Source of the DNA: Candidatus Peribacteria bacterium
Lineage (GTDB): Bacteria; Patescibacteriota; Gracilibacteria; Peribacterales; Peribacteraceae
Assembly: GCA_943357915.1 (NCBI GenBank)
Contig: CALRGQ010000002.1
Location: 1 to 63,191 of the forward strand
Reading direction: 5' to 3'
DNA length: 63,191 nt
Shown here: positions 12,975 to 59,704 of the stretch, piece after piece
How positions within the stretch are numbered: position 1 is the stretch's first letter
How the letters are laid out: every line of letters begins with the position of its first letter
Position numbers and translations under genes: made by a program
Notes under the pieces: generated by a model
What the model was told of the DNA's origin: nothing
The model's database searches: none
What the model saw: the letters and a program-made list of their open reading frames with translations, nothing else

Positions 12975-12977
12975 GTC

Positions 12978-19115: not shown

Positions 19116-19214
19116 AGGACAATTGACATTTTGAGGGAAAGCATCACAATACTTGACCGGTTTTCCCTTTGGGAAAGCTGGAAAAGGTCTTTGGAAACAT
19201 TGCGATTGATTGAA

Positions 19215-19264
19215 GTGACATTGGCACATTGCTCACCCGAGAGTGGCCAACGTGCCAATGTCAC
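19215..19264. promoter_or_regulatory. Perfect 13-bp inverted repeat (gtgacattggcac / gtgccaatgtcac) with a 24-nt spacer
   Basis: Read directly in the alaS/isomerase intergenic region. No T-run follows, so it is not a typical terminator. Confidence 0.4.
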
Positions 19265-19457
19265 GAAAAGGAATATGCAGTTTTGATGGGAATGTTTCCT
19301 GTCATGCAAATTTCAAAATCACTTCCACACTTTAGAAAGGATCAGTGGAAAATGAAGAATCGAAGGATTTCACTCGAGAAAGTCCTCCGATTTTCTTGCA
19401 TTGGCAAAAAACATTTCTGATCAATTTACAAATTCTACGATGAAGGAATCCTAAATT

Positions 19458-20588: not shown

Positions 20589-20638
20589 TCATACCCAGAC
20601 TGCGAAAGCTGAAGACCAATCGCAATGTCAAAAAGACT

Positions 20639-20670
20639 CTCCCAGTATCTGCAAGGATGCTGGGAGTTTT
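20639..20670 (+). terminator. Rho-independent terminator
   Basis: ctcccagtatc-tgcaag-gatgctgggag forms an 11-bp stem (one G-U), followed by tttt. It lies 50 nt after the stop at 20588. Confidence 0.7.
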
Positions 20671-21299
20671 ATTGAGCCCTTCTGTAAGCCATAAAATCGA
20701 TATTTTTCGTTATGTATATTTTCGTACACAAAATGTATTCAAAACATCATGATCATAATACAGCGAGCCCTAACACTTGCGGATTTTTTAGGTTCGACTA
20801 CGATGCGATGAACCCTGAAGAAAAGAACGGGTTCAAAACAAACAATCCAAACAAAAGAGTCCTCAAACAAAACAAAAACAAATAGATGCCCCGGACGCGG
20901 GGCGCCACACAGATCCTTCACACCACCGCTCATCAGTAGAGAGAAAGATGCCTACACAGCAGTTCTGACTCGTTCCTCCTGGCCATTCATCTGCAATCCT
21001 TGCACAATTCTGGGTATAGCAACGCTTGGTTCTCTTGTGGTCATCTTTCTCTCTGCTCTGCAATGTCGTCCTGCCTATGCGGGATGCAACCCAACTACTC
21101 CCCAGTGTCACCCTTGGTTCCTAGAATCTTGTGGCTGACCGGTCCGGGGACTTCGTGAGGTCACGAGGAGAAATAAGAGACCAAAGCACAGCAGATAGCG
21201 TCCGAAAGGACACAAACAGTTCCTGCGCATCGGCAACGCCTCACGGCAATGACGAAACCCGCAGAAAACAAAAACAAAGGCCCCTCGCGGGTCTTTTTT

Positions 21300-21563
21300 T
21301 TAACGCTCGAGGTCTCTATACACATCCTTCCGGTGCGCAATGCGTAGAATCCTGACGATGCTTTTCTCCAGATGAACCTGATAAATGATCCTATAATCAC
21401 CACTGCGTAATGAGCGGTAGCCTTTGAGTTTCCCCGTTAAGCGTTTGCCATCCATAAAACGCGTACCGAGCCCATAAATGTCTTCTGCAATCTGTGTTCG
21501 TAATTCACGATCAAGAGCGCGAAGTACCCTGTCCGCTTTGGTTTCGATAATAATCTCAAACAT
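21300..21563 (-). CDS. RelE/ParE-family type II toxin
   Basis: 87 aa with the typical signature ...LKGYRSLRSGDYRIIYQVHLEKSIVRILRIAHRKDVY. Overlaps the upstream antitoxin gene by 8 nt. Confidence 0.8.
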   Translation of the reverse strand: MFEIIIETKADRVLRALDRELRTQIAEDIYGLGTRFMDGKRLTGKLKGYRSLRSGDYRIIYQVHLEKSIVRILRIAHRKDVYRDLER

Positions 21564-21846
21564 AGTCCTTCATGTTGAATGACGTGAATGACCCGTGCTT
21601 GTCTGCATCAAGAACATCATCAATAAACTGTGGCGTAAACGCTCCTTCGTCATCGCCGGTGCCTTGTGATGTCCGACCCAGACCTTTCCGTGTGCGGATG
21701 CCTTCAAAGAAACGACGAATCCATGTACTGACATCCTCACCAGATTCACGGGCGATTGCGATGACGTCATACTTCAGACGCTCATCGATCCTGATCGTCA
21801 GTGTTGACGCTTTCGATGTCTTTTTTGGGATGCGAGCAGATGGCAT
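21556..21846 (-). CDS. Antitoxin, probably ribbon-helix-helix (CopG-like)
   Basis: 96 aa. N-terminal STLTIRIDERLKYDVIAIARESGEDVSTWIRRFF fits a beta-strand/helix-helix RHH. The position and overlap with the toxin gene support the call. Confidence 0.65.
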   Translation of the reverse strand: MPSARIPKKTSKASTLTIRIDERLKYDVIAIARESGEDVSTWIRRFFEGIRTRKGLGRTSQGTGDDEGAFTPQFIDDVLDADKHGSFTSFNMKDYV

Positions 21847-21924
21847 GTCTGTATTGTACGTGCATTGTTAGTGCAAGGCAAGAACATGTCATGACTTTTT
21901 TAAAATGCAATACGTAAGAAATTA

Positions 21925-21933
21925 TGATATAAT
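21925..21933 (+). promoter_or_regulatory. Extended -10 box (TGaTATAAT) upstream of the 1109-aa ORF
   Basis: tgatataat lies 14 nt upstream of the ATG at 21948. No Shine-Dalgarno sequence in between. Confidence 0.4.
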
Positions 21934-21947
21934 ACAAAGATTTTTTC

Positions 21948-24900
21948 ATGATCAATACTCAAACATTTTCTGAGGCAGGATCTGATGCAAGCAATGCCCG
22001 CCTCACTGGCGAGCAGGAGTCAACTATTCATGATTTCTATCGAAGCCTTTTTACGAGAATATACGATGAACCCACTGCAGTTCCCTATCGGTGTATCGAG
22101 TTAGGATTTGAATCGATCAATCCTCCCTCGCAGAAGGAAAAAAAGGATAGTTTTACATTGATCAATCCCTCCGCGCAGATGGATGAAGCGACATGTAGAG
22201 AAATCGCGGTGATCTTTTGTCATGAACTGGTTGGAATTACGAAAGCAATGCATGAAAGTACAGGATCTTTGACGTCAAGAAAGACTCTGCAATTTTTATA
22301 CATGATCCGCAATACTTGCTTCAATCCTCAGTTCACCGATGTCACAGATTTTCTGAGCGACATCGAACTTCTCAAGTTCACTCGTGCATTCACGCAAATT
22401 CCCTGTGCACATCTCGGTATTGGAAAACATGTGACGACAAAAGTTATTGAACGTCTTGGCTCCATCAATCCCGCTGAAATTCCTGCACTTATTCAGGCAT
22501 TACATGCACTGCCACTCAGCGAACGCCTGGATCTTGCACAACTTTTTCCCAACTTGTTCCGAGACCTCGAACTACAGTCAACCGACGACCATGAAGCAAT
22601 GCAAATGCCAAAGAGTGCAAAAGCAGGAGATGAAACAAGGCAGCAGGCCATCAACGTGATGGCACGAGTTATGACCAAACTTCACCAAGGAGCGACGAGT
22701 GCACTGGAGGAACTCGCCCTTACGAATGCTCAAAATAACTCTCTACTGGAATTACAGGCAAAGGTACGACCGGAGGGACTCCAGAACCGCATCCATGAAC
22801 AAGCCATGCATGATGCCCAGACGACACATGAGCACCTTGCAAAGCATATGCACCTGAGCACAGTCGTTCAGAAAAATGAACGCATTGTGACCATCGGGAA
22901 TAATGCCGTCGGCATTATGGGCCCAACTGGAGTCATCCGCGACATCGAACTCTGTGAGCATATGAAACTAACAGAGGAGGCACCGTTCTCCGCAACGGTT
23001 TTGGAAGACGTACGTAATAGATTGCAACTGGGCATGACGAATGACTTATTCTTTGAGATGGTTGATGAAGAAATACTCAGTAGAATCAGTGCAGACACCA
23101 CCCGACAAGAATTTTGGGGGCACGTCTTTCCTGATCTGCAAGCAAACGAACTTTCAGAATGTCTTGAAGCAATAATGAATGAACGAATAGGGAGAACAAA
23201 CGGTGCCAGCATTCTTCTTGCCGAAGCCGAAACAAGTATTGCTACGCGTATCCAGAGCATGAATCGTTCTACGGATGCAATCTCAGTAATGATGGATGAA
23301 ATACGCCACGATCCTTTCCTTGGACAGTTTGACGTGTATCTGGAACGGTTTTATTTTTACCAAACAGTAGAAATACCAGAGTCTGTCCATGAGCATCAAT
23401 CCGAAAAAAAGAGAGGAATCCCGCATCAGGCAATGCAAGCAATTGACTGTCTGATTCTTTCTGCAGAACAGCAGATGAGGACAAGAACAAGAATATCAGA
23501 GACAATACCAAGTGAAGTCTCGGTACCAGAAAGATCTCCCATTCTTGAAAGGCTGAAAGAGATACGAGACCAAGCATACGCGGAAGACCGTACACACGCT
23601 ACGGCATTCCAGGCGCGTCGATCTGAGGAAAGTGCACAGTATCAGAAAACAATGCCACGTAATACTGCTGCAATACAAAGATTGAATCAGGAGTTGCAAA
23701 AGCAGAACGGAAGAGAACCTCTCAAGGCAGCTCTCGACGACCTACATAATACATACCTCACTACGCTGCCATCCGTCGATCTCCAGCCAACGGAGGAATT
23801 TCTGCGTGAGACGCGATTCTATCCCTTCGAAGCGTCTGATCAGGAAGAAGAAATAAAAACCTTTGCGCTGCTACATAGCCCGGAGATGCGTCGAACACTC
23901 GAAGAACAACTCGGAATCTCCTATGACGATATGTCACTGCAATCACTATTTCAACTAGGAAGATTTCTCCGAAACAAAAAACCGGCAGATTTCCTCGATA
24001 TGCGTATCGTCGTCAATGCACAGGGGCTACCGCCACATGGACCAGATGCAAAGAAGAATATGCTGACGTCATTCTTAGCATGTTCGGAAGATCTTGAACT
24101 CGGTGATACGGTTCTAAAGCTTGGAAAATTTGATTGGTCTGATGATCTTTTCGCTCTCTATGCGAATGCCGCAAAGAATGCGGAAACGAGTGCACGAGAA
24201 ATCCAAGCACTGTATGCGGAGGCGAACATCAAGACGGAGCTGACAGTTGGTGATATCTATCGGGAACTGATCCTAGGGTCGAATGAACTCTTGAAGAGAG
24301 CAGCCTCTGGAAAAGACATCGGAAGCATCCAAGTACAACTCTTCAGTGAGAGCGCGCAGATCAGGAATACGAATTACCTGCTACGACTTCTCTCCCCTGA
24401 GGACAGATCACAATTGAATCTGAATATGCTCGGAAGCACGCACATGCATGGATCAATACCAGTCTCAGAGCTAAAATCGAACCCCAGTTATACTGGCATT
24501 CTGAGGCAGGTGGTAGAGACCATTCGGAAAAATTTCCCAAAGGGAGACGATATCGATTTTACAGAACGTTACCTTTCGGATCCGAGCGCAGAATTCTTTT
24601 TCTCGACGTGCGGAGATCAGCTCCTAGCGTTCTTCGGAACAACTCTAATGCCGAACGGAGAGCGCTATCTGGACTGGTTTAATGCAAATGGAGACAGTGC
24701 GGTACGTGGCCTTGCCGAGGCGACGGTAACCACCGGTATCCAGAGTCTTCGGGATCACAAGGACGTCTATCTTGTAGCAAAGCCGCACGTCCGTTCTCAC
24801 GAGATTTTTAGCCGAATGGGCTTCGTTACCTACGGCATCACCGAACCGGACGAATACAAACACCGCTATATGCGTTGCAGACTCCTACAGGAGGAGGAGA

Positions 24901-25277
24901 GAGAACGGTACGTCGGAAAAAATCTGACGGCTGACGACAAGAAACAAATACCTGCAATCTGTATGGACGAGAATACGATGTACCCGCTCACCATACACGG
25001 AGAAGAAGTACAGGTATGTAAGGTTCACTTCAGCGCAGTGGATCACCATGACAATGTTCTGCCAGAAGATGAAAAAAATGGCTTCATATTGAGGGAAATA
25101 GCTGGTTGCTGTACCGACAACCAAACCGTTCTCACGGCATACCTGCGTGATCCCAACTTCACGAACGGCGATCAAGTGTATTACTGCTTGTTTGAGAGAA
25201 GCATTTTGGGAAGACAACAGTATGACTCACTCGCAAAGAGCGTGCACGATTTCCACCAATTGCACTCCGCAGCGTAA
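21948..25277 (+). CDS. 1109-aa orphan protein, mostly alpha-helical by composition, with a possible GNAT-like fold near the C-terminus
   Basis: Long uninterrupted ORF with no TM or signal peptide. The segment near aa 920-985, AVRGLAEATVTTGIQSL...VYLVAKPHVRSHEIFSRMGFVTYG, resembles GNAT motif A/B. Confidence 0.7.
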   Translation: MINTQTFSEAGSDASNARLTGEQESTIHDFYRSLFTRIYDEPTAVPYRCIELGFESINPPSQKEKKDSFTLINPSAQMDEATCREIAVIFCHELVGITKAMHESTGSLTSRKTLQFLYMIRNTCFNPQFTDVTDFLSDIELLKFTRAFTQIPCAHLGIGKHVTTKVIERLGSINPAEIPALIQALHALPLSERLDLAQLFPNLFRDLELQSTDDHEAMQMPKSAKAGDETRQQAINVMARVMTKLHQGATSALEELALTNAQNNSLLELQAKVRPEGLQNRIHEQAMHDAQTTHEHLAKHMHLSTVVQKNERIVTIGNNAVGIMGPTGVIRDIELCEHMKLTEEAPFSATVLEDVRNRLQLGMTNDLFFEMVDEEILSRISADTTRQEFWGHVFPDLQANELSECLEAIMNERIGRTNGASILLAEAETSIATRIQSMNRSTDAISVMMDEIRHDPFLGQFDVYLERFYFYQTVEIPESVHEHQSEKKRGIPHQAMQAIDCLILSAEQQMRTRTRISETIPSEVSVPERSPILERLKEIRDQAYAEDRTHATAFQARRSEESAQYQKTMPRNTAAIQRLNQELQKQNGREPLKAALDDLHNTYLTTLPSVDLQPTEEFLRETRFYPFEASDQEEEIKTFALLHSPEMRRTLEEQLGISYDDMSLQSLFQLGRFLRNKKPADFLDMRIVVNAQGLPPHGPDAKKNMLTSFLACSEDLELGDTVLKLGKFDWSDDLFALYANAAKNAETSAREIQALYAEANIKTELTVGDIYRELILGSNELLKRAASGKDIGSIQVQLFSESAQIRNTNYLLRLLSPEDRSQLNLNMLGSTHMHGSIPVSELKSNPSYTGILRQVVETIRKNFPKGDDIDFTERYLSDPSAEFFFSTCGDQLLAFFGTTLMPNGERYLDWFNANGDSAVRGLAEATVTTGIQSLRDHKDVYLVAKPHVRSHEIFSRMGFVTYGITEPDEYKHRYMRCRLLQEEERERYVGKNLTADDKKQIPAICMDENTMYPLTIHGEEVQVCKVHFSAVDHHDNVLPEDEKNGFILREIAGCCTDNQTVLTAYLRDPNFTNGDQVYYCLFERSILGRQQYDSLAKSVHDFHQLHSAA

Positions 25278-44645: not shown

Positions 44646-45107
44646 ATGTCTCAGATTCATCGTGAGCAGTTTGGCATTTTCCATATAACGACCAACACCG
44701 TTATTTCGAACTCTTGGTGCACATGGAACGGTGTTCCTCAGTGTCTGATTGATCATCTATGTAGAGCAAGAGATCTGTACCATGCAGAACTGTATGCATT
44801 TTGCATTCTTCCAAATCATGTACATATCATTCTTTCTCCTGGCCCGAAAGGCTTAAGTAGATTTATGCAAGCTTTCAAGTCAAATAGTGTGAAATATCTA
44901 CGGAAACAACATGTGGCACAGGCGAAAGAGATTGGATGGCAGGAAAACTTTTACGATGAACGTATTCGTGATGAACAGCAGCGTTCAAATGCTCTAGCCT
45001 ACGTTCAGGGGAATGCGATGAAACATGGTTTGGTACAGGAAATTTTAGATTGGCCATGGACATCGTTACATTTTCCTTCAAAACTCGATCTGTTGGATAT
45101 TTGGTGA
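44646..45107 (+). CDS. REP-associated tyrosine transposase (RAYT), copy 2
   Basis: HUH motif PNHVHIIL and Tyr region LAYVQGNAMKHGLV. By eye, roughly 60% identical to copy 3. Confidence 0.85.
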   Translation: MSQIHREQFGIFHITTNTVISNSWCTWNGVPQCLIDHLCRARDLYHAELYAFCILPNHVHIILSPGPKGLSRFMQAFKSNSVKYLRKQHVAQAKEIGWQENFYDERIRDEQQRSNALAYVQGNAMKHGLVQEILDWPWTSLHFPSKLDLLDIW

Positions 45108-47202: not shown

Positions 47203-47658
47203 ATGTCGCAAATTCACTATCAACAGTATGGCATATTCCATGTCACAACGAAGGCAAAAGATAACATCCCATGGTGTACAAAAGAGGGCGTGCCGGATCT
47301 ACTGATTGATCATCTATGCAAGACACGTGATATCAACGGTGCGCTACTGCATGCCTTCTGCATTCTTCCAAATCATGTACATCTGATTCTGTGCCCAGGA
47401 CCAAAAGGTTTAAGTAAGTTTTTACAGTCCTTCAAGTCAAACAGCGTCAAAGAGCTTCGTGCGCGAGATGTTCCATATGCCGTCGGTTGGCAAGCCGGTT
47501 TTCATGACGAACGTATTAGGGATGCAGTTCAGCGATCCGCTGCAATTGGATATGTGCAAGGGAATGGGATGAAACATGGATTAGCCAAAGAGGTTATGGA
47601 CTACCCATGGACCTCGTTACATTTCTCATCAAGAGTAGACCCACTCGATGTGTGGTGA
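47203..47658 (+). CDS. REP-associated tyrosine transposase (RAYT), copy 3
   Basis: HUH motif PNHVHLIL and Tyr region IGYVQGNGMKHGLA. Confidence 0.85.
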   Translation: MSQIHYQQYGIFHVTTKAKDNIPWCTKEGVPDLLIDHLCKTRDINGALLHAFCILPNHVHLILCPGPKGLSKFLQSFKSNSVKELRARDVPYAVGWQAGFHDERIRDAVQRSAAIGYVQGNGMKHGLAKEVMDYPWTSLHFSSRVDPLDVW

Positions 47659-48698: not shown

Positions 48699-51600
48699 TC
48701 ATCCTTGTTGAATTTTTTGCCACTGTTTATCAAATGGATAAAAAAGGTGAGGAGAATCTACAAATTTGAACGCCAATCTCTCATCCGACACAGGTTCGCT
48801 ACGTGCATCATGATCGACAGACCGACGAGACTTCTTCTTTTTAGCTGGCTGAAACTGAGGAAAACACAGAATGCCCATGCTTTGCAGAGTCTGCTGAACC
48901 GATTTCAACCCAAGCTTCGTCCTCATATCTTTCGACGATGAAGCGATACCCTGAATGCTTAAAACACCTTGAGTCAAACGCTGAAGATACTCGAGTCTCT
49001 CTGCTCTATCCACTATTGGAATAATCGGCAATTTCCTCCCTCCGATTTTGAATTCGCTATGGGGAAGTGCATATGGCAATTTGCGTTCTTTTATTTTCGT
49101 TCGAGATTCTTTTCCATACAGAGGTGTCATGACTAGACCTGTAGAATCCACACTCTGTAGGTCAGCAATCGTAGGATCAAATGCTTTGCGAGCTGTGATG
49201 ACGTGCATCTGATGTGGAGGTTCTCCTTCATTATCCCGAGACACAGTCTTCCCAGAGTACGTAGAAATGATTTCCAGACCAAAAGCCTCAAGTTGTTCAC
49301 GAAAGTGCGCAAGTTCAGGCTCAGTACACGAATCGTAATCAATAGGAATAAGAAGAATTCCGCCATCGCTCGGCTCTGATACTCCAGAAAGGCCAGCATC
49401 TGGAGTTTTAAGAGCACGCACGGCACCTCTCAGTGCACGAACACGACCAGTCATCTGCAGTTGACCATCTTGTTGTGCTGCATGACTTGTTTGATTCAAG
49501 CCCTGCAAGACGACAAGATCTTGCGAGCCAGCTTGCACCATCCCTGACTCTATCAGTGGATTTAATTCGTCCAACGTTGCTGCAATATTATGTCCTTGAT
49601 CGATAAATTCTGGCAAAAGAATTCCTCCATAATCCAACATCTCTTGGGTTGCATCCATACTACAAATATGTCGACTTTTCTGGGGTGAAACCTGAGACAA
49701 GATGTACGCAAGTCGTTGGCCACTGGAACATGTATGGAGATACGAGCCGCGCTCTGGTAATAGACCATCCTTTTCAAGTTGAAGAACAATACTTGCAATT
49801 GCACGTTCTCCATCTCCTATTGATGAACTTTCTTTCTGATCCAACATTTGGATGAAATCATCTCTATGAAGATTCCAAAACTCTTTCGTTTTTGTTGAAC
49901 CAACACCATGAAGAGCACGTGAGAAGCGTTGAAACTTTTGTTCAGGAGATTCTATGGTACTGGCAACACTCTCATCCTTCACGCGTGCTTCATTAGGATC
50001 CGATAACTGCGCCATTCGATCATCGCTAATAACTCCGTAAAAGCACCGAAGAACGTCGAGATACTTGAGCTCCGCTGCTGTTAGCGTTCCTTCCTCAACT
50101 GTTCGTTCTGCATAGGAAATAATCATATGACAATCCGTATTTCCCTTTCGCAAAACACGCTTGAGTAGTTGATAGAGATCCGGTGTGTTATACGGCCACT
50201 GTGAAATAATACCATCGATAAATCTGAGATCTATACCCAAGTTCAAGCATGCGCTCTGTGCAAAGAGAACACACTGGCGACCTTCGCGTTTCGCCTGTTG
50301 CATGTCTTCGAAAATAACGATGCGGTCATCATCATCCGTACCTCCATGAATGATATGAAAAGTGATGTTTCGATCGTCACACCATGATTTCAGTGCATCG
50401 AAAAAGTAATGCTGTGGATCACCCGCCTCATCATCAGGCCTCCATAGAACGCTTTGAGAGAGTATATTTTCAGCAACAAGAATTGTTTTTCTTCCTTCGA
50501 TGTTCAAAAGAGTCTCGATATGTTTTGTTGTTTCTTCAAATGAAGACCACGGCATCGTAGGGTCCGAGCTCATGAGTTTTGGACAACGAATAATGAGTTG
50601 GCTTAAGTGCAATTTTTGCTGTGCGGGCATGGAGTTATCATCGACGATGAGTTGCAGTAGTGCACGTTCTCGGTCAGAGATCTGATACGGCTGGCGATCG
50701 ATATTTTCCATCCATTCTTCTCGCCTATCCATCATCCACAGTTTCCCCATCATTCTTCGAAGTTGCGCCCACTGATTCGGAGGTGACGTACGGCGCTCAC
50801 TAGCTTCGTACTCGCTACTTGCACTCTCTAAGAGTTCGAGGGTGATACGCAGTCCATTTAAGTGCCCAGGAGCAGGAGTAGCTGAACTGAACATGACATG
50901 ACCTTTTGCATGTAAATTTGGAATTCCATGAATCGTTCTGCGAGCAAGGTGCGTATAGGTATTGTCACCTTGCAAAAGAGCAGCTTCATCAAAAGAGACA
51001 TTGGTAAATGGCTCGGCTTGATTGATGAGTAAGTCTGCAATAACTAACTCCGCTGGATCCCTGTCTCCAGTCTTGGTTTCTTTTGGATCCTTGCCTCTAG
51101 TTTTCGTGTCCTTTCTCGTAATATCCCACATACTGTACGCACAGAAGACAATATCTTTGGATGCTGCCTCACGAATCTGCGCAACTGTCATTCCTTTCCG
51201 AATAACGCCCACCGTCGGCGCATCATCAGGGTTTGGGTAATAAAGAGAATCTGTTTCTTTATCAACTGTGCCTGCGCGTACGCGGTTCGGAATTTCATTA
51301 ATAACTGGCTTCGGTCCAAAAAATAGCAACCGTGTGCGACCTTTCGACTGGTTCACTGTGCGTTCAGCCTTTGAAAGTTCGTATGCCCAGAAATGCGTAA
51401 ATGTCTTACCTTCGCCCGCTCCGAAACCGATGTACGAATGTCTCTTCTTCGGATGCATCATCTCAGCTATCGCAAGTCGTTGTCTCCAGGATCCTAAAGG
51501 CCACTCCACACCTTTGTGATCAATAGACGTTTTTGCCATCGTTTCAGGAATTTGAAGTGAAGCGGCATCTTTAAAGTGCAATACAACGTCTTCGCAGAGC

Positions 51601-52388
51601 TCAGCATGAGCTTCTGAAATCTTCCCTGCCTTCTGCCCAAACGCTTTATTATACAGCCCCCCAAGCTGCTTACGAATCCACGGATCAATTTTCTTCAGGA
51701 ATGTTGGCTGATTTGCCATGGAGTCAGCATCTTCATCAAGAAGTTTATGGTAGCAATACTCAACAAGAGACCGATGGATTTTTTCTCTCAGCGTCATGTT
51801 TTGCAAAATAATCTCTGGACACTGCAGCACACCAATAAGACCATTACCATTCTCCGTTGGAGCAGTTTCTCCAAGGTATGGCGAGATACATGAAAAAGCC
51901 GTAGCACGCTCTCCGGGCTCTAAAATCCCAAGATCACAGAGGATGTCCAACGCCACCGTATCACCGATGTATACAGCCAGCTGAGCATATTGCATCACAA
52001 TCGTTGAGATCTCTGCTGGTGTTTTCTTTATTTTTTTTGAACCATTCCCTCTCCCTTCAAGGGGATGGCTACGACGTAAAACATCATCCTCAGATTGCGA
52101 TGCAAAAGTGTCGCTCTTTTTTTTCACCAATGCACGCAAAATACTATCCCTTGTTGTCGTAATGGCAGCCCTCAGTCCGGTTGAGAGTTGCTTGCTTTCA
52201 ATCCATCTATCCACAAGATTACAGAACGTACCTTCTCCTAACTCAGTTATCACATGATGCTGATATCGTGAACTGAAATCATGTACGAGTGCTGCGATGA
52301 CAGCAGCTTCATCGGGAAACTCTGCAGCAAGTGGTGCATGAGCTTCCGTAATGAGCGGGACGATATCGTTGGCAATAGAAATAGACAT
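48699..52388 (-). CDS. 1229-aa SF2 (SNF2/DEAD-like) helicase fused to a C-terminal class-I methyltransferase-like fold with a degenerate SAM loop
   Basis: Motif I GFGAGEGKT (~51400-51432), II FDEAALL, III SSATPAP, V-VI LFAQSACLNLGIDL...WPYNTPDLYQLLKRVLRKGN (~50140). The MTase-like strands YLHTCSSGQ / ICSMDATQEML / DLVVLQGLNQ / GGILLIPI / HVITARK lie at ~49180-49790. Confidence 0.8.
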   Translation of the reverse strand: MSISIANDIVPLITEAHAPLAAEFPDEAAVIAALVHDFSSRYQHHVITELGEGTFCNLVDRWIESKQLSTGLRAAITTTRDSILRALVKKKSDTFASQSEDDVLRRSHPLEGRGNGSKKIKKTPAEISTIVMQYAQLAVYIGDTVALDILCDLGILEPGERATAFSCISPYLGETAPTENGNGLIGVLQCPEIILQNMTLREKIHRSLVEYCYHKLLDEDADSMANQPTFLKKIDPWIRKQLGGLYNKAFGQKAGKISEAHAELCEDVVLHFKDAASLQIPETMAKTSIDHKGVEWPLGSWRQRLAIAEMMHPKKRHSYIGFGAGEGKTFTHFWAYELSKAERTVNQSKGRTRLLFFGPKPVINEIPNRVRAGTVDKETDSLYYPNPDDAPTVGVIRKGMTVAQIREAASKDIVFCAYSMWDITRKDTKTRGKDPKETKTGDRDPAELVIADLLINQAEPFTNVSFDEAALLQGDNTYTHLARRTIHGIPNLHAKGHVMFSSATPAPGHLNGLRITLELLESASSEYEASERRTSPPNQWAQLRRMMGKLWMMDRREEWMENIDRQPYQISDRERALLQLIVDDNSMPAQQKLHLSQLIIRCPKLMSSDPTMPWSSFEETTKHIETLLNIEGRKTILVAENILSQSVLWRPDDEAGDPQHYFFDALKSWCDDRNITFHIIHGGTDDDDRIVIFEDMQQAKREGRQCVLFAQSACLNLGIDLRFIDGIISQWPYNTPDLYQLLKRVLRKGNTDCHMIISYAERTVEEGTLTAAELKYLDVLRCFYGVISDDRMAQLSDPNEARVKDESVASTIESPEQKFQRFSRALHGVGSTKTKEFWNLHRDDFIQMLDQKESSSIGDGERAIASIVLQLEKDGLLPERGSYLHTCSSGQRLAYILSQVSPQKSRHICSMDATQEMLDYGGILLPEFIDQGHNIAATLDELNPLIESGMVQAGSQDLVVLQGLNQTSHAAQQDGQLQMTGRVRALRGAVRALKTPDAGLSGVSEPSDGGILLIPIDYDSCTEPELAHFREQLEAFGLEIISTYSGKTVSRDNEGEPPHQMHVITARKAFDPTIADLQSVDSTGLVMTPLYGKESRTKIKERKLPYALPHSEFKIGGRKLPIIPIVDRAERLEYLQRLTQGVLSIQGIASSSKDMRTKLGLKSVQQTLQSMGILCFPQFQPAKKKKSRRSVDHDARSEPVSDERLAFKFVDSPHLFYPFDKQWQKIQQG

Positions 52389-52391
52389 GCG

Positions 52392-55379
52392 TTATTCAGA
52401 AGGTGAACGAAGTAAGAGAGACCGAAGAATATATTCCTGAAACGCAAGATAATCATCAATAATTTCTTTGGCATCTGGATCCCCATCCCCAGCTTTCTGC
52501 AGAAGAGCGTGAACCTTGCTACTGATACGACCTTCTACAGAACCAATCCGCTGCTCTAGTGCTGGGTGTGCATCCCTCGCTTCCTGTGCCCTCTGGCGAG
52601 CTTCTGATCGCGCTCTATGGGCAATATGCCCTTGCGCAGTTTTCTGTAGTGCTGGGAATGACAGTATTTGTGACTTCTGCGCTTTGCTTTCATCTAAACC
52701 ATCTGCAACTTCGGCTTCGGATACATTTCCGTCCTGTACTAGGACAATTGTAGATTGTCCAATCATAAGTTCTGCCGCATCAATATCGTCACTGCCAAAA
52801 CTTCTGCACACTTCTTCTACTATCGCAGTACATTGCTCTGCGCTGACAAACTGAAACTCTGTAGATTGCTGCTGGCTCATCGCAGTTGCCACACCTTCTG
52901 CTACTGCTCGTAATTGAGAAATAGATGGCTCAGTCCCTTGCTGTATGCATGAGAGAACTGCACTATCGACCCTGCTCATGCACGTAGAAGCGAAACTCAT
53001 CATTTCAGCAGTTATTTCTTCTACATGGGATATAGAACGCGAATGAACCATATTCCCTAATTGCCTTGCTACAGCTTGGTCTATTGCATCTTCAAACAAT
53101 GCAGCTACGTAACGACCCACATTCTTCCCTGATGTACCTGATGCCTCCATCGCTTCCGCTAGAGGATCCTGTAAACGAGTTCCTGTATCTTTTTTCTTAT
53201 CTCCCTCTTGCCCCTTCCCTCCTCGAGAAACTAACCCCGATCCAACACCTTCTCCCCCCACTTCCACTCTCTCCTCTCTTACCTTTTGTGCTCGCTGCAT
53301 GATGTCTGCAAAAGCATTCACGAACCCTACTCTCACTTGTACAGCATCACCGTTTGACGAAACACTGTCTGTACAACACGAAAGTAGATATGCAGACAAT
53401 TCTGCAAAACGAGACTGAAGGTAGTCTCTGAACTCTGCGGGTACTGCAATAATATCTTTTCCTACAGTAATTTCTTGTGGGACTGCATCGATGATGCCTT
53501 GGAAAGCTGCAAGGTATCGTTCCGCATCCTCTTTCGTCCGCATCACTCGGCCACTGACCGTTCGTATGCATTCGAAAATTTGCCGCTCTTCTGCGGGAGA
53601 GATCAATTCATTCTGAATCCTCTTATCTACTTCTGAATTCTTCCCGTCTTTCTTCATCTTCAACTGACCAAAAGCTTCATCTCTCATACTTGCAAAAGCT
53701 CGTAGTAGTGAATCTACCGAGGGAGTCTCGACTGCCACTTCTGTAATCTTTGGAACAACTGCCTTGGGTGTGCTAAGTGGAGGCTTTGGGTAGAAGTCAT
53801 TGATTATATCCAGATACGCTGATCTACGTGATGCCTCACTATAACTTCGCAACAGAAGTGGGCGAGTAAGCGCTGTTAATCGTATCGGCTTGGTAACAAA
53901 TAGGCTAAGAGCATTCCTAAAAATTGAAGCAAAAACTGGTGAAATGTCTTCAAAAGGACATTCAAAAATTATCTGAAGCATACGTTCAAGATGACGCTGT
54001 AAATACAATGCGTACTCTTCTGGAGTTGAAACAGAAAAATCTTCATCTGTGTACACAGCACTTTCACGAATAAGTTGACAAAGCAATCTTACTGAAGCTC
54101 TCAAAGCTTGTTTATTCCCATACTTGTACTGTGTTTCGCCGGTAACTTTTTGCGCTAAACTCAAAAGATCTGTATCAAGACTATCAGGATGTATAAATAA
54201 TACTTCACCTTTTTTTGGGCAAATGAGAATCGATTCTACCTCTTGAAAATAAGCTGCTCCATATTCGGAAGTCATCGAAGACTCTACCGTGGGCGGTAAT
54301 ATCACGGAATAGTGATCAAATAATCTAAAGAGTTCCTCTAATGGTGGTCGTATATAATCAGTATTAAAATCTGGGGTGTTAGCATACCAAGACTTTATGC
54401 TTTTATGCATTTCATCCATCAGTATTTTTATATCTTCTACTGAAATGTTTGGATCTACTAAATAACCCATAAATGTATCCATGGCACGGTTAATATCGCC
54501 TTCAAATAGAGCAGCGACTTCTTGTAAATATTGATCTTTAGAAATTCTTTTTCCAGATGCATTCACAATCTTTGTTTTTTTGGTAATAGTTTTACGTGCA
54601 AACTCTAGCCACCTGCTATGCCCTTCCCTTATAGCAGAAATAAACTGACTTCTCGCTGCAGCATTCCTATCCTCGTCAATAATCACATGTCGCATCTCGG
54701 GAATCTTATTCCGACTGAATAAAACATTATCATCCCATGACCAAACGAATTCAAAAACTTCTCCCTCTTCTTCCACAGTATCTACCTTGGTCGCAGAGCT
54801 CTTGAAGAACGACGCTACTGGAACTCTTGCTGCCTTTTTTTCTGTCATAACAAGCTGTGCTTTCTGAATGGATAAGAAGCTTTCTACTGTCAGTCTTTTT
54901 TCTAATACCTTTGCAAGTAGTGCATCTTCATCGGCTAAATCATCAATGGTGAATTCTGCTAAGCACAATCGAAGCGCCCCGCTAGCTTGGCGGATTGCCG
55001 CTATCACTTGTTGGCTATGGCCTTTACCGTCTACATGCTCGAAGTTTCCTAGGTCGAAAGATGCGCTTTTGACTGCATTTGTTATTCCAGATACAGAGTC
55101 ACTCACTGACAAAATAGCTCTACATGCTGCGTCAATTCCATTCCTCACTCCACCAATAAATCTCGAAAATATTTTTACATCACCAGCACTGCCTTCTTGC
55201 ACGTTAGGAATTGAAGCAGAAAGAGAGGCAAGAACTGTTGCTTCTACAAGCATGTTCACCCGACCGCCTACTTCAGCAGGATTTTGAAGATCCACTGGCA
55301 ATGTATCATCAATCACTGCAGCTGCCTCAGACGGCACAACTACCTCTTCTGCCGCTGGCTTGGATAGCTTTTTCGCCAT
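52392..55379 (-). CDS. 995-aa orphan protein (no TM, no signal peptide, no recognisable catalytic motif)
   Basis: Long ORF. Its ATG overlaps the upstream stop (TAATG), and its stop lies 3 nt before the helicase ATG. Confidence 0.7.
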   Translation of the reverse strand: MAKKLSKPAAEEVVVPSEAAAVIDDTLPVDLQNPAEVGGRVNMLVEATVLASLSASIPNVQEGSAGDVKIFSRFIGGVRNGIDAACRAILSVSDSVSGITNAVKSASFDLGNFEHVDGKGHSQQVIAAIRQASGALRLCLAEFTIDDLADEDALLAKVLEKRLTVESFLSIQKAQLVMTEKKAARVPVASFFKSSATKVDTVEEEGEVFEFVWSWDDNVLFSRNKIPEMRHVIIDEDRNAAARSQFISAIREGHSRWLEFARKTITKKTKIVNASGKRISKDQYLQEVAALFEGDINRAMDTFMGYLVDPNISVEDIKILMDEMHKSIKSWYANTPDFNTDYIRPPLEELFRLFDHYSVILPPTVESSMTSEYGAAYFQEVESILICPKKGEVLFIHPDSLDTDLLSLAQKVTGETQYKYGNKQALRASVRLLCQLIRESAVYTDEDFSVSTPEEYALYLQRHLERMLQIIFECPFEDISPVFASIFRNALSLFVTKPIRLTALTRPLLLRSYSEASRRSAYLDIINDFYPKPPLSTPKAVVPKITEVAVETPSVDSLLRAFASMRDEAFGQLKMKKDGKNSEVDKRIQNELISPAEERQIFECIRTVSGRVMRTKEDAERYLAAFQGIIDAVPQEITVGKDIIAVPAEFRDYLQSRFAELSAYLLSCCTDSVSSNGDAVQVRVGFVNAFADIMQRAQKVREERVEVGGEGVGSGLVSRGGKGQEGDKKKDTGTRLQDPLAEAMEASGTSGKNVGRYVAALFEDAIDQAVARQLGNMVHSRSISHVEEITAEMMSFASTCMSRVDSAVLSCIQQGTEPSISQLRAVAEGVATAMSQQQSTEFQFVSAEQCTAIVEEVCRSFGSDDIDAAELMIGQSTIVLVQDGNVSEAEVADGLDESKAQKSQILSFPALQKTAQGHIAHRARSEARQRAQEARDAHPALEQRIGSVEGRISSKVHALLQKAGDGDPDAKEIIDDYLAFQEYILRSLLLRSPSE

Positions 55380-56053
55380 TATTCAACGGTGGGAGGAAGA
55401 GTGACAGGAGGATGCAATGTTGCTTCCATGTGCTGCAAAGCTGTTTCATGCTCTGCTGCAATCTTTGCACCGAGAGCCTGATCATCGTTGGTCAGTGCCG
55501 CCGCAGCTGGAGCAAAGGCATCACGAATTGCCTGCAAACACTCAGTAATTTCTCTTTGAGTCATGGAATCATCCAAGCCATCTAACAATGCAGTTGCCGC
55601 AGTACCGAATACATTGAAAGCCTCACAAGACGCTTGTCCCTCCTTCGTTTCCCATATGAGCTGAAGCGCATCGGCATTTTCAGTGGAAATATCTTGAAGA
55701 ACTCCGTTGTATGCAGTCACAAGGTCATTTCTCATCATCCGCGGAGCTTCACAGTTCACAAACCACTCACGAAGCTCTTGGACAAAATACTGTCGTAAGG
55801 GTTCTATGGAAACTCTATCGACGGCATAACCAAGTCCTGCAACAAGACGTCCGTACTGCTCAGGCGTATTGATCGTTTGACGTTGTATCGGTTGGTTTTT
55901 ACGGGGCGGTGAGAGATTGGTTAGATCGGCAACCACTGCGCGTGCAGCTTCACGGAATGCTTCAATGAGCGGCGTGCATGTAGCGCTGTACACCCCCCCC
56001 AGAAACGTCCAGATCGCTCCTGAGCTGAGCATTATCTCTGGCACCATTCGCAA
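55379..56053 (-). CDS. 224-aa ORF, probably the frameshifted C-terminal continuation of the 1217-aa ORF
   Basis: Overlaps 55962-59615 by 92 nt in a different frame. A G8 run (plus-strand C8 at 55993-56000) lies inside the overlap. Confidence 0.5.
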   Translation of the reverse strand: MRMVPEIMLSSGAIWTFLGGVYSATCTPLIEAFREAARAVVADLTNLSPPRKNQPIQRQTINTPEQYGRLVAGLGYAVDRVSIEPLRQYFVQELREWFVNCEAPRMMRNDLVTAYNGVLQDISTENADALQLIWETKEGQASCEAFNVFGTAATALLDGLDDSMTQREITECLQAIRDAFAPAAAALTNDDQALGAKIAAEHETALQHMEATLHPPVTLPPTVE

Positions 56054-59000
56054 GTGCTTCCATGCTGGACATCAGATAATCATGGGTCAGCCTTCCAGAT
56101 TCCCACGTAGGCTCCGCACCTTCTGGTAACGGGTGAGCGAGTGTTTTGTTTGCATGCCAAGCGGGGGTGTCAATTGAGTCTGTTTGTACTACAGAGGTAC
56201 TTGCAGAAGTGTGTAGGCTTGTTTCCCATAATTCATAAACTTTCGTGAGCTTATCTAAGATTCCTTCCCAAAAATTAATAGTTGGACTGGAACCCTGGTT
56301 ATTATACTCAGGCCGTTCTAAGCACTGCATAATTTCCCCCACACTAGAAGTTATCAAAGATCCTACCATCTTACTGTCATTGATAGATCGTATCCCTTCT
56401 GGTAACCATGTGAGGAAAAATTGTGTTATTAGGTTTCTCAATTCCTGAATATAATCATTCAATTCAGAGATAAATTTTTGTTGAACAGCAATATCCTCTG
56501 GAGAGATAGATTGAGCAAGTGCACGTACTCCTGAGCTGATGCTATCTTGCTTCAAAACATTGAGAACTTGACCCTTCGCCTTTCCAGCAGGAATAGAAGT
56601 GCCTGTTGTCTCTGCAATACTGTTGATAGAAACAGCGTTCAGTCCAAAATTACTCATACCGAATTTATCACCAATCTGTTTGAAAATGGGCGCAAAATGA
56701 ACGGCTATTTCGTCATCCGGTGCCAATTCGAGCGAATATCCTTCTCCTGCTTCATTCCTGGCGTCTTTTCTCAGAAGAGCCATTTGCGTTGCAAACCACA
56801 GCAAAAACTTATGAAGATCTTGTATACAAGAAATGATGTCAGGGCACTGTCCTTGTATCGCATCTCTCGATCGCTCTACTTCTAGATCAACTTCTGCTGT
56901 GCCAAAAAAACTAGCACGAGAAATCACATCACAAAATGCATTACAGAATACTTCCCTCGAAAGTGGTCCCACACCTTCGAGGCCAGTGTCAGCGGAAGAG
57001 GGAAATTCCGCATCGAGTAATTCGTCAAATTTCATACGTAAATCCGCTGCTAGCGTGACTGCACTTACAGCATGGCGTGGTAGCACTTTTCTTATTATTT
57101 CGTTCTCAGTTAAAGCGCGATTCAGGACATCTTCACATACTCTTCGTGCCAGCAATACATCCAGACCCTGAGGTAGTGACTTCCAGTACGACACATAATA
57201 TTTTATGAGAGCCTGTAAAACAGGGATGTGTTGTAAACCTTTTTTTGTGGGACGCTCCTGGATGACATCCATGGATCCCATGACCCCTTCCTTCAACGTC
57301 GCAAGTCTTGAATTAAATAAGGCAGAATTCACTGTGTGTATGTTCAGACGTTCTTGTATCATTGAAAATACTGCTTGGTACGCTAGCTCTCGTTGTCGGC
57401 ATTCATCTAAATTATGAGGATGCACTCTTGCTTCAGAAATTACCACACCACCATTCATGGATTTTTTAATATCAGGATCAAAATCGGCGCTCTGGAGACG
57501 GATCGATGTATTGAGACAAAGATGGGATAGTCGAAACAATTGTTCATATGATGTTTCATCTATAATTTCCGGGCATTGCTCGAGGAGGGGGCGCAAAGTA
57601 CGCTGATCTAATGTTAAGAGGCTGCTATTGAGAGATGTAGCCGACATTTTTTGAATACATAAATCAATAATCTCCTGCTTCGTCATAGATTTTCGCTCTA
57701 GTTGCTCAGAATGTTCACTCGGTGAATTCTCTACATCATAAATCTCTTTATGAGGAAATTGTTTTATAAGAATACTATCAATCTCCGCTGCAAAAGCTTC
57801 GACCTGCTTTGTCATCATAGAACTCGTCAAAGAATCTATTTTTCCAGCACTATGTATCATCGCACGTAGGCAGGTATGTAAAATCCCATAAAAATATGCC
57901 GCCTGAGAGACATCAAGTCTCTGCGGAAAATATTCATGCATGCTTATGCGAAATTGTGAGATAGACGCCATATCTTGGAAGTCATCGCTCTCTAGTACTG
58001 AGTTGCCAACTCTTCTCTCTCTTATAGGAATATCTAGTGATTTTAAGTGCTGATCCAACGTTGCTGCAAAGACAGTGCACTCAACGGTATGAAGCCCCAT
58101 ACGTTCTTGAATGACTACACAAATCCGCTGGAAAAAAATCTCTCTCTTTCGAGATTCATCCAGAATTGGTGTTCCAAACGTTGAACCGCTCTTCTTTACC
58201 CATTGCTCAGAACAAAGAAGTCTTTTCGTCTCCCTGTCCTGTATATCTAAGTTTCGTGCACGTAGTTGAAAGTTACAACACTGATACGATAAAGCTTCCA
58301 ATAAACTTCGCAAGGGTTGTCCTTCACATTGTGTGCGAAGCTCAGCTATTTGTCCTTGGATCGCTGTCAGCTGAGGGACGAATGGAAATGATTTCGGAAG
58401 CTCATCTGCAATCAAAGCAAAAACGTCTTCTTGGGTCATAAGTATTCGCTCTGGTTGCTGAGGATTTTCAACATTGGCTCCGAGAAGGTTTTGATCGGAA
58501 ACTTGCGCGTTTGCTGAACTGCTATCAAATTCAGACCCAGTTTCTGCACTATCTGCCATATCTGAAACTAGGCGAACATCTTCTTCTGTAGAACTAATGC
58601 TATCTGCACTCGGCATTCCAGAGACATTGGTTTTTAACGAGAATTCTTTGCCTTTTGATGGGGCATCTGGAAATTGCTCAAAAAGCAGCATATTGACACC
58701 AGCTGAAAACTTTAGAAGATCTACTAAAAGACGTTCTCGAAAAGAAGCCCTATCTACTTGGTCATCGCCATATGTTGTTAATATGGCTTGATTCGTACGA
58801 ATAGCATTTGTGCAAATCACTCTTGCCTGTAAAAAGTCGATGCGATCCGGCACCAGCCTATTAAATTCGTTGTACAATCTAACAATTGAGCGCTCAAGTT
58901 CGACACTTTTTACAGAACGTGCTTGAATTGCGGTTTCTGTCCGTAAAGCGTTGTCTCTACTGTCGTTAGCCAACGTCTTTAATCCTTTCAGAAACCCTTG

Positions 59001-59615
59001 AGAGCTTACTGTTGTTATGCCCAAACGTTCCTGGAGTTGAGCAAAATTAGCATGCATAGAGCTCTCAAATAGATTCAAAGTGCTGGCTATGGACGAGAAA
59101 TCTTCCGTGTCAGGATGCAAAGATTTTCCTCCATTCAGAATCATCGTGAGACGTGAACCAAAATTTTCCCCCTTAATTCGGGGTTCGCGAATGCAAAAAC
59201 AGGAAGAAGATATCTCATTGAGAGATGCATGGTAATTCGTGGAATTAATAGTTTCCGGTAGTTTTTTTTGTGCCTCATTCCAAAAAATACGCATGCTATC
59301 TCTGGTATTAGCGAAAGACAGGTCAAAAAGGGCAATGAATTCGTCTTTTAAGATTGTCGGTCGTTCCACAAGCCGTGTTTCCGGTTGATTTTGTGTACTT
59401 TCAGGAATGGTTTCGCCTTCAGCTTGCACATCGGCCACCGCGTCATTCCCTCCTGTTCGTCTTCTCATATCATCTGCAATTTGTAATAGCACTGATTGTA
59501 ATTCAGGAGACGCCGTCGCAGGATCAATGCGCTGCACAATAACATCCGGTCCTGATGGGAGAGCATCGTCGGCTTTTCTATCGCCCTCTGATGGTCCTGA
59601 AGTGCTTGAGCTCAT
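55962..59615 (-). CDS. 1217-aa orphan protein built from about four divergent ~250-aa helical modules
   Basis: Long ORF. Recurrent module landmarks: QERLGITTV / QERMGLHTV / QERLNIHTV; LVPDRIDFLQARV / FPQRLDVSQAAY / LPQGLDVLLARRV; EQFPDAPS / KQFPHKE / AEFPSS. Confidence 0.7.
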   Translation of the reverse strand: MSSSTSGPSEGDRKADDALPSGPDVIVQRIDPATASPELQSVLLQIADDMRRRTGGNDAVADVQAEGETIPESTQNQPETRLVERPTILKDEFIALFDLSFANTRDSMRIFWNEAQKKLPETINSTNYHASLNEISSSCFCIREPRIKGENFGSRLTMILNGGKSLHPDTEDFSSIASTLNLFESSMHANFAQLQERLGITTVSSQGFLKGLKTLANDSRDNALRTETAIQARSVKSVELERSIVRLYNEFNRLVPDRIDFLQARVICTNAIRTNQAILTTYGDDQVDRASFRERLLVDLLKFSAGVNMLLFEQFPDAPSKGKEFSLKTNVSGMPSADSISSTEEDVRLVSDMADSAETGSEFDSSSANAQVSDQNLLGANVENPQQPERILMTQEDVFALIADELPKSFPFVPQLTAIQGQIAELRTQCEGQPLRSLLEALSYQCCNFQLRARNLDIQDRETKRLLCSEQWVKKSGSTFGTPILDESRKREIFFQRICVVIQERMGLHTVECTVFAATLDQHLKSLDIPIRERRVGNSVLESDDFQDMASISQFRISMHEYFPQRLDVSQAAYFYGILHTCLRAMIHSAGKIDSLTSSMMTKQVEAFAAEIDSILIKQFPHKEIYDVENSPSEHSEQLERKSMTKQEIIDLCIQKMSATSLNSSLLTLDQRTLRPLLEQCPEIIDETSYEQLFRLSHLCLNTSIRLQSADFDPDIKKSMNGGVVISEARVHPHNLDECRQRELAYQAVFSMIQERLNIHTVNSALFNSRLATLKEGVMGSMDVIQERPTKKGLQHIPVLQALIKYYVSYWKSLPQGLDVLLARRVCEDVLNRALTENEIIRKVLPRHAVSAVTLAADLRMKFDELLDAEFPSSADTGLEGVGPLSREVFCNAFCDVISRASFFGTAEVDLEVERSRDAIQGQCPDIISCIQDLHKFLLWFATQMALLRKDARNEAGEGYSLELAPDDEIAVHFAPIFKQIGDKFGMSNFGLNAVSINSIAETTGTSIPAGKAKGQVLNVLKQDSISSGVRALAQSISPEDIAVQQKFISELNDYIQELRNLITQFFLTWLPEGIRSINDSKMVGSLITSSVGEIMQCLERPEYNNQGSSPTINFWEGILDKLTKVYELWETSLHTSASTSVVQTDSIDTPAWHANKTLAHPLPEGAEPTWESGRLTHDYLMSSMEALANGARDNAQLRSDLDVSGGGVQRYMHAAH

Positions 59616-59704
59616 ACTTTACAAAAAGGATTATTATTTTAATATATAACATATCTTGGCACAAGAGCTGATTATGGCTCATATAGGCTTTCTATGGACG
59701 CCTA

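Follow-up and report, generated by a model that had tools for sequence, protein, structure and literature searches.

A three-gene module of giant, fast-diverging proteins and a predicted Snf2-methyltransferase-fold motor in a Candidatus Peribacteria chromosome

The locus described here raises the question of how many genes make up a block of very large open reading frames (ORFs) in the chromosome of a Candidatus Peribacteria bacterium, a member of the Candidate Phyla Radiation (CPR), and of what these genes might do together. The analyzed stretch, referred to as the window, comprises 63,191 nt of contig CALRGQ010000002.1 (assembly GCA_943357915.1), and carries the block on its minus strand as four ORFs: P1 or ORF1 (55962-59615, 1217 aa), P2 or ORF2 (55379-56053, 224 aa, TTG start), P3 (52392-55379, 995 aa) and P4 (48699-52388, 1229 aa). 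A preliminary description, made from the sequence alone, had read these as four closely packed genes forming a candidate undescribed system. The ORFs and their coordinates were confirmed, whereas their interpretation as four separate proteins was not, given that ORF1 and ORF2 turned out to be one frameshifted gene. The block is a tightly coupled, operon-like module of three genes, hereafter gene A (P1 and P2), gene B (P3) and gene C (P4).

Gene A, of approximately 1,411 aa, is broken by a +1 frameshift in a run of eight G residues (G8 on the minus strand, C8 on the plus strand) at 55993-56000, which is the sole G/C run of eight or more nucleotides in the window. P1 residues 393-1213 and P2 residues 19-223 aligned to successive parts of one 1,601-aa ORF in a related locus (L009), and P1 and P2 aligned likewise to successive parts of one 1,099-aa ORF in another (L013). 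Within the P2 portion, identity reached 36% with L009 (P2 residues 19-223 against residues 1406-1600 of L009_1601) and 58% with L013 (P2 residues 25-218 against residues 905-1098 of L013_1099). At the tract, frame 0 reads ...SDLDVSGGG and meets a stop nine codons further on, while the +1 frame continues as ...GGVYSATCTPLIEAFREAA, homologous to both relatives; removal of one G (G7) or addition of two (G10) yields a continuous gene A ORF of 1,411-1,412 aa. The homologous site is an in-frame G5 in L009 and has no tract in L013. Since ORF1 and ORF2 correspond to a single ORF in L009 and L013, the block holds three genes and not four: P1 represents the 5' part of gene A, and P2 its conserved C-terminal portion of about 200 aa rather than an independent gene. 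The 92-nt out-of-frame overlap at 55962-56053 noted earlier is indeed present, but as a frameshift within one gene and not as a gene junction. A coding-region homopolymer tract whose length sets the reading frame, as seen here, is a feature of phase-variable loci. Slippage in the tract may have switched gene A to an OFF state; the interruption may also be a mutation that has become fixed, or an error of assembly.

The two remaining junctions were found as previously reported, namely a TAATG stop/start overlap at 55377-55381, the natural boundary between genes A and B, and a 3-nt spacer at 52389-52391 between the stop of gene B and the start of gene C, a spacing suggestive of translational coupling. 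The boundary between genes A and B took several forms in relatives, with a 40-nt gap in L009, a 1-nt overlap in L013, and fusion of both genes in L007 and L018. Upstream of gene A, a weak sigma-70-like promoter match (9 of 12 positions, minus strand, 59633-59662) lies in the 40-nt divergent intergenic region; it is suggestive only, because the promoter and terminator scan returned promoter-like sites without enrichment in this region.

The two upstream genes, termed partners of gene C in what follows, together account for about 2,400 residues of orphan protein, which is acidic, predicted to be soluble and without recognisable domains. No match to P1-P3 was found in Pfam, NCBIfam, PADLOC or PHROGs, and no transmembrane-like segment was detected in any of the four ORFs, in agreement with the preliminary description of these proteins as orphans. 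The partners are acidic (pI approximately 5, against 6.1 for P4). The N-terminal part of gene A (P1, 55962-59615) is conserved over residues 1-104, at 66% identity to L013, and is followed by diverged internal repeats of approximately 250-300 aa whose copy number differs among relatives. These repeats showed only in that P1 aligned with the partners of L009 and L018 in multiple registers, and BLAST self-comparison of genes A and B returned no significant internal repeats. Gene B consists of a mosaic, hypervariable N-terminal region of approximately 737 aa (53169-55379), ending in a Gly/Ser/Lys-rich linker, and a C-terminal module of approximately 250 aa (C-module; residues 738-995 plus stop, 52392-53168) with the motifs DPLxEAM and a C-terminal GD. 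A word-based homologue search with P3 returned one relative, and a profile of the C-module compared with PDB sequences matched only de novo designed helical repeat proteins, which is uninformative.

The last gene of the block was predicted to encode an ATPase-competent motor of the Snf2 family, that is, a Snf2-type double-stranded DNA (dsDNA) translocase. Enzymes of this family track along dsDNA and remodel protein-DNA complexes, and do not unwind DNA. Gene C starts with an all-helical domain (approximately residues 1-290, 51519-52388) bearing a family-conserved YLGE motif, followed by the ATPase core (approximately residues 291-800, 49989-51518), which was recognised by superfamily 2 (SF2) motifs, profile comparison and structure modelling. 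The core motifs, Walker A G325xGKT329, D467-E468-A, S502-A-T-P505 and Q740..R744..R747, were invariant across 11 family members, and K328, D467, E468, Q740 and R744 were also invariant in an alignment of 48 members. A profile search of PDB sequences matched the C-lobe of ISWI (E 1e-5), while the single P4 sequence gave no match there. With an AlphaFold2 model of residues 30-1229 (pLDDT 71), the top 50 Foldseek matches in the PDB were all Snf2-family proteins, including SMARCA4, Mot1, ISW1, CSB, Chd1, Ino80 and Rad54 (E 6e-13 to 2e-9, TM-score up to 0.71 on the target). In Pfam, SNF2-rel_dom did not score above its gathering threshold in P4, where only Helicase_C was seen, at 19.8 bits against a cut-off of 23.5; the SNF2-rel_dom profile recognised two of the 11 close relatives, 16 of the 38 relatives in the wider set, and each of the five single-chain proteins tested (see below). 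The other profile matches of P4, to DrmA, DrmD and a phage helicase family, were sub-threshold.

Beyond the motor, gene C contains a class-I S-adenosylmethionine (SAM)-dependent methyltransferase (MTase) fold (approximately residues 850-1070, 49179-49841), as predicted by the structure model and by Pfam matches of relatives, among which Methyltransf_25, Methyltransf_11 and Methyltransf_31 were found in 10-13 of 38. Since models of gene C match both Snf2 remodelers and class-I MTases, the helicase-MTase fusion that had been recognised by eye stands. A separate model of residues 800-1229 (pLDDT 76, pTM 0.76) gave Foldseek matches of the MTase domain to YtqB/MnmM, METTL13, the CurJ C-MT, TrmK and COMT (E 1.5e-5 to 1e-3, TM-score approximately 0.5-0.63); these neighbours are mostly non-DNA enzymes, with M.BseCI appearing only at 4.5e-4, and the modelled fold is of the Methyltransf_11/25 kind and unlike that of DNA amino- or C5-MTases. 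In the window protein, SAM motif I is degenerate (Y-L-H-T-C-S-S-G-Q, with only one Gly, against D/E-x-G-x-G-x-G), whereas about half of the 48 family members carry a near-canonical D-[LV]-[GA]-C-G-P, recognised by Pfam. The acidic residue at the end of beta-2 that contacts the SAM ribose, D912 (S-M-D), is conserved: most of the 48 members share the D, and P0011 has E in its place. SAM binding by the window-type domain is possible and catalysis is doubtful. The protein closes with a C-terminal region (48699-49178, including the stop) that bears a family-conserved tail, ...RRLAFRF..FYPFDxQW. Within the tail motif FYPFDxQW (P4 residues 1207-1229, 48702-48770), F1216, Y1217, P1218, D1220 and W1223 were invariant in the close family, and the form FxPxDxxW was kept across the 48 diverged members; the motif might serve as a latch or as a peptide that binds the partner.

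The preliminary description had called for a comparison of gene order in related genomes, and co-conservation of partner and motor was evident: all 11 loci examined had one to three large ORFs without Pfam matches directly in front of the Snf2-MTase gene, and the pairing persisted down to approximately 22% helicase identity. Partner size and partition varied widely, from fused ORFs of 2451 aa (L007) and 2560 aa (L018), through pairs of 1411 (frameshifted) and 995 aa in the window, 1601 and 972 aa in L009, and 1099 and 957 aa in L013, to single ORFs of 1312 aa (L019 and L012), 1270 aa (L003) and 1189-1217 aa (L021 and L022) and a set of 869, 616 and 941 aa (L023); in L016 and L017 the partner is cut by the contig end. 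The partner stop and the helicase start were 2-3 nt apart or overlapped by 4-11 nt in 10 of the 11 loci, the remaining one (L013) having a 27-nt gap. In the window, L007, L009, L013/L014 and L019, the module follows the same rhodanese (UPF0176) gene and is followed by an SDR and/or a DCC1-like gene and then by a UPF0020 MTase gene, with ATP synthase genes beyond where the contig reaches that far. L018 kept the downstream flank (the SDR/DCC1-like side), its upstream neighbour not being identified, and more distant members lay among other housekeeping genes (OTCase, FAD reductase, RelA/SpoT, GreA, SSB, guanylate kinase). A search of metagenome contigs for loci anchored on the rhodanese gene returned only unrelated bacteria (at most 47% identity).

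The family as a whole proved small. A word-indexed homologue search retrieved 11 clusters among 5.8 billion, and the same search with the 48-member profile returned these 11 clusters and added none. An exhaustive HMMER search of 1.84 billion representatives gave 70 matches at E <= 1e-30, of which approximately 65 were proteins of about 1,200 aa aligned over the N-terminal domain, the Snf2 core and the MTase region. A second tier consisted of single-chain proteins of 1,300-2,600 aa, with a long Pfam-less N-terminal extension, SNF2-rel_dom, Helicase_C and Methyltransf_11; the N-terminal helical domain of gene C has a homologue in these tier-2 proteins, where it stands behind long variable extensions. 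One of them, in L024 (10001-14161, 1386 aa), the only tier-2 protein whose gene context was seen, has an N-extension, SNF2 and Methyltransf_11 and no separate partner gene. It lies 2.8 kb from a Type III restriction-modification-like cluster (16975-23873; N6_N4_Mtase, RhuM, and ResIII with RE_endonuc) that is accompanied by a GIY-YIG/DUF4357 gene, and this was the only context seen with defence genes nearby. All members with a taxonomic label belong to Candidatus Peribacteria or Peribacterales, most members being unlabelled. No relative was found on a viral contig, and a viral origin was rejected, as the phage and viral matches were all generic Snf2 helicases.

The partners diverged faster than the motor and the flanks when identities to the same genomes were compared. 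Flanking proteins shared 56-83% identity and gene C mostly 49-56%, while genes A and B shared 22-44%. L013 departs from this pattern in that its helicase is of a different subtype, 26% identical to gene C and 26-29% identical to all others, although its gene A and the N-terminal region of its gene B are the closest relatives of those in the window. Along gene B, identity to L013 alternated between 82-90% (residues 30-180), 12-20% (residues 240-510), 52-68% (residues 540-690) and 10-25% (beyond residue 700), whereas identity to L009, which is closer to the window by its flanks, stayed flat at 15-40%. The nearest relatives thus differed from segment to segment along gene B, at both the protein and the nucleotide level. 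In nucleotides, the blocks shared with L013 were 75-81% identical (flanks, 68-70%), and a gene A block shared with L009 was 82% identical (flanks, 71-76%). Because the shared blocks are only 75-82% identical, the mosaic would reflect reassortment of old allelic modules rather than recent transfer. Repeat number and ORF partition of the partners also vary among relatives, and the partners of the distant members L022 and L023, which are acidic as well, showed no detectable similarity to gene A or B. The order of modules in the 2,560-aa partner of L018 (2315-9997), with a segment resembling the gene B N-terminal region at residues 133-668, gene A-type repeats at approximately 1250-2270 and the C-module last, indicates domain shuffling within the putative partner.

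The C-module behaved differently from the remainder of gene B. It was found at the C-terminus of the partner in L003, L007, L009, L017, L018 and L019, and among type-I relatives it was the only partner segment present upstream of every helicase. In L013 a different module takes its place, and the helicase is likewise of a different subtype. By these alignments, the C-module co-varies with the subtype of the predicted motor.

The impression, first gained by eye, that the block is more AT-rich than its neighbours was borne out by calculation. Its GC content was 0.43-0.45 against 0.498 in the rest of the window, GC content at third codon positions was 0.33-0.39 against 0.42-0.61 in ten other window genes, and its tetranucleotide deviation (0.19-0.20) formed one of two maxima in the window, the other, of equal height, lying at approximately 4-15 kb. 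Low GC recurred in the partner genes of L009, L013 and L019; the fused partners of L007 and L018 did not share it. Since the trend recurs in the partner genes of relatives, it would reflect the way in which these genes evolve and not a recent import, and recent horizontal transfer was rejected as its cause on the strength of this recurrence and of the 75-82% nucleotide identity of the shared blocks. The reading of the locus as a mobile defence island, or otherwise as an import, was not supported either: the module occupies the same position, with housekeeping flanks, in several Peribacterales genomes, and no member was on a viral contig.

Given its motor and its very large proteins, the module was compared with described systems. 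It shares with DISARM and Druantia, to which the preliminary description had likened it, a multi-gene block, very large proteins and an SF2/Snf2-type ATPase, and with DISARM also an MTase; it differs from both in lacking DUF1998, a PLD domain, a DNA MTase and any DruA-E homologue, in apparently lying outside a defence island and in being found in one lineage. The analogy failed for every membership feature examined. Regarding DISARM, NCBIfam DISARM_DrmD scored 13.3 bits against a cut-off of 610, PADLOC DrmA gave E 0.025, and neither DrmB (DUF1998-associated), nor DrmC (PLD), nor the DrmMI/MII DNA MTase was present in A, B or the neighbouring genes at any locus. Regarding Druantia, no DruE-type DUF1998 helicase, DruA-D or DruH was found, the DrmA match being the only one from PADLOC among the four ORFs. 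Type I, ISP and III restriction-modification were excluded by the absence of N6_Mtase, N6_N4_Mtase, DNA_methylase, Mrr and an HsdR-type nuclease from all members, and Zorya and Dpd were rejected on scores and on absent companion genes. Type ISP enzymes (LlaGI/LlaBIII type) combine a dsDNA-translocating SF2 ATPase and an MTase in one chain; unlike them, gene C lacks a nuclease of the Mrr/PD-(D/E)xK kind, and an N6-adenine (NPPY/DPPY) MTase and a target-recognition domain are missing as well. As PADLOC and NCBIfam gave only sub-threshold, domain-level matches and no known defence family claims the module, its designation as an undescribed system was upheld, and no description of it was found in a full-text literature search.

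Closer likenesses were found outside defence. In Mot1/BTAF1 and RapA, a Snf2 motor works together with a large helical part that has no enzymatic activity and provides recognition, an arrangement that the module would share; among the structural matches of gene C, Mot1 ranked with the best and gave long alignments, and RapA was matched at domain level by tier-2 relatives. In contrast to these proteins, with which there is no homology outside the Snf2 core, the module has its large part in separate hypervariable genes and adds an MTase fold and a conserved tail. Dnmt5 is a fungal C5-DNA methyltransferase fused to a Snf2 ATPase, whose ATP hydrolysis can gate methylation (bioRxiv 10.1101/2020.01.05.895227). 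It resembles gene C in carrying a Snf2 ATPase and a SAM-MTase domain on one polypeptide; however, its C5-cytosine MTase lies N-terminal to Snf2, whereas the MTase fold of gene C is C-terminal and of Methyltransf_11/25 type, has MnmM/YtqB, METTL13 and TrmK as its nearest structures, and has a degenerate SAM loop in the window subclade. The tier-2 single-chain proteins share with the module the order of helical domain, Snf2 core and Methyltransf_11-type MTase, with a long variable Pfam-less region in front, and so look like a fused counterpart of partner plus gene C. Only their core is homologous to gene C, though (E 1e-19 to 1e-34), and in a Rosetta-stone comparison their N-extensions showed no similarity to genes A or B.

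What the module does may be approached from these likenesses. The products of genes A and B and the motor would form one complex, with gene C as its engine, and the giant, fast-diversifying partner could act as an exchangeable recognition scaffold by analogy with Mot1, in which a HEAT-repeat arm holds on to a protein bound to DNA as the Snf2 domain pulls on the DNA. Under such a working model, motor and partner would likewise grip a DNA-bound protein and pull on DNA, and the MTase-fold domain might bind SAM as a cofactor or signal, or might methylate a non-DNA target. Because the partners are mosaic, vary in repeats and outpace their flanks, the target would most likely be fast-evolving or foreign, which points to a lineage-specific conflict module (immune, or for interaction with a host or competitor) rather than to routine housekeeping, a direction with which the low GC at third codon positions also agrees. 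A conflict-type, lineage-specific function is proposed tentatively from these alignments, as a possibility that we place somewhat short of an even chance. The fuller version of this proposal, a CPR-specific conflict system in which a Snf2-MTase motor draws its recognition subunits from giant acidic repeat proteins that are hypervariable and can replace one another, with shuffling of old modules at a fixed slot and slippage-switchable expression, is speculative and, taken with all of its parts, rather unlikely.

Several results weigh against a conflict function. Profile libraries detected neither a nuclease nor a protease nor any other effector domain in the 3,600 aa of the module, and the predicted MTase fold resembles MTases of small molecules, tRNA and proteins, is of non-DNA type, and has a degenerate SAM loop in the window. 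The module occupies a fixed chromosomal position among housekeeping genes, its neighbours in the six tier-1 contexts seen included neither defence nor mobile genes, and no viral contig was found to carry it. The family is also rare and lineage-restricted, its labelled members being Peribacteria only, and defence systems usually spread across phyla.

The explanation that best survives beside it is a housekeeping remodeler of nucleoid or transcription complexes specific to Peribacteria, in which the motor recycles or evicts a resident DNA-bound protein, as RapA acts on RNA polymerase and Mot1 on TBP; the giant partner would then be a loosely constrained scaffold, and its fast divergence a sign of weak constraint and not of conflict. 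In several genera the module keeps its place between housekeeping genes and seems to have been inherited vertically, which agrees with such a role, as do the lack of an effector domain and of PADLOC matches above cut-off, and structural neighbours that include Mot1, CSB and RapA-type Snf2 enzymes. Retention of about 1% of a genome of approximately 1.2 Mb (PMC4736985) also speaks in its favour. However, the partners diverge past detection while the motor still aligns, and the sharp alternation of blocks of 82-90% and 12-20% identity points to recombination between maintained alleles, a pattern that relaxed drift would not give. Moreover, helicase subtypes only 26-29% identical share one syntenic slot, and a frameshift in gene A would be odd for an essential function. 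A housekeeping role is considered only a little less likely than a conflict function.

A further alternative concerns the state of gene A only and is compatible with any functional reading of the module: the G8 frameshift could be inactivating, gene A a pseudogene and the four-ORF pattern a by-product of decay. The frameshift does truncate gene A and split off its conserved C-terminal 200 aa or so, and AT-rich composition can accompany relaxed selection. The frameshifted sequence also recurs in two further assemblies, but the three are 100% identical over 7.7-11.1 kb and for that reason do not constitute independent evidence. No other lesion was seen, the frame downstream of the tract is open for 224 codons and still 58% identical to L013, and neither gene B nor gene C is damaged, the set of ATPase motifs being complete; a single-base error or reversible slippage at G8 fits the data equally well. 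Decay of gene A is judged improbable.

Less probable still, and distinctly so, is that the module is an effector directed at a host or prey by an episymbiotic CPR cell and delivered to remodel or mark the DNA-protein complexes of the partner cell, with an arms race with the host driving partner diversification. An episymbiotic way of life and large lineage-specific proteins occur together in many CPR bacteria, and both the fast, mosaic evolution of the partners and the lineage restriction, as expected of lifestyle-specific functions, would suit this explanation; yet no signal peptide, transmembrane segment or recognisable secretion-system signal was found in the proteins, no secretion genes were seen in any neighbourhood, nothing ties the proteins to export, and an episymbiotic lifestyle is only presumed for Peribacteria. 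Finally, a divergent member of a known Snf2 defence system (DISARM, Zorya, Dpd, BREX-associated or Druantia-like) is very improbable, since the weak domain-level matches of relatives to DrmD, DrmA, ZorD, DpdE and mad2, and a pairing of Snf2 motor and MTase that recalls DISARM, are offset by scores far under curated cut-offs (e.g. DrmD, 13-24 bits against 610), by matches that span generic Snf2 or MTase cores only, and by the absence at every locus of a DUF1998 helicase, PLD nuclease, PglZ, ZorA/B, Dpd cluster or N6-adenine MTases.

Other features were observed in the vicinity of the module and elsewhere in the window. The segment rich in RAYT and repetitive extragenic palindromic (REP) elements that had been reported at 44.6-47.7 kb was confirmed, with two RAYT-type Y1 transposase (Y1_Tnp) ORFs at 44646-45107 (segment 44570-45214) and 47203-47658 (segment 47119-47691), both bracketed by inverted REP-like palindromes with the core GGGACGCGACGTCCC. 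These elements lie approximately 1 kb from the module, were found only in the genome of the window among the loci compared, and were absent from the orthologous DCC1-like/UPF0020 neighbourhood of L009 and L019. A second pair of giant genes (7434-15491, minus strand) coincides with the other peak of tetranucleotide deviation in the window; the first encodes a 1846-aa protein with 12 DUF11 repeats, DUF7619, bMG10 and DUF7507, which looks like a surface protein, and the second an 837-aa protein with DUF4215. Another large orphan, an ORF of 1109 aa on the plus strand (21948-25277), had no Pfam match at E <= 1e-3. In L006/L007, an F-type ATP synthase cluster (13734-20382) has the unusual order beta, epsilon, AtpI-like, a, c, b, delta, alpha, gamma, with a UPF0020-type MTase gene divergently upstream; the window counterpart is at approximately 35.3-43.2 kb.

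What is new here is the partner arrangement, which is undescribed, the building blocks (Snf2 and class-I MTase) being known. Databases currently label proteins of this family as 'hypothetical protein' or 'superfamily II helicase', and the approximately 65 clusters together with the related single-chain tier constitute an unannotated Snf2-Methyltransf_11 architecture. The locus also offers a lesson for annotation, as overlapping ORFs that look separate in such giant genes can be homopolymer frameshifts. Although CPR genomes are tiny, this lineage devotes about 1% of its own to the module. Should the partners prove to be recognition subunits of the Snf2 motor, bacteria would have a hitherto undescribed means of conferring specificity on an ATPase of the chromatin-remodeler type; the module could also represent a novel immune or antagonism system within a large radiation of uncultivated bacteria.

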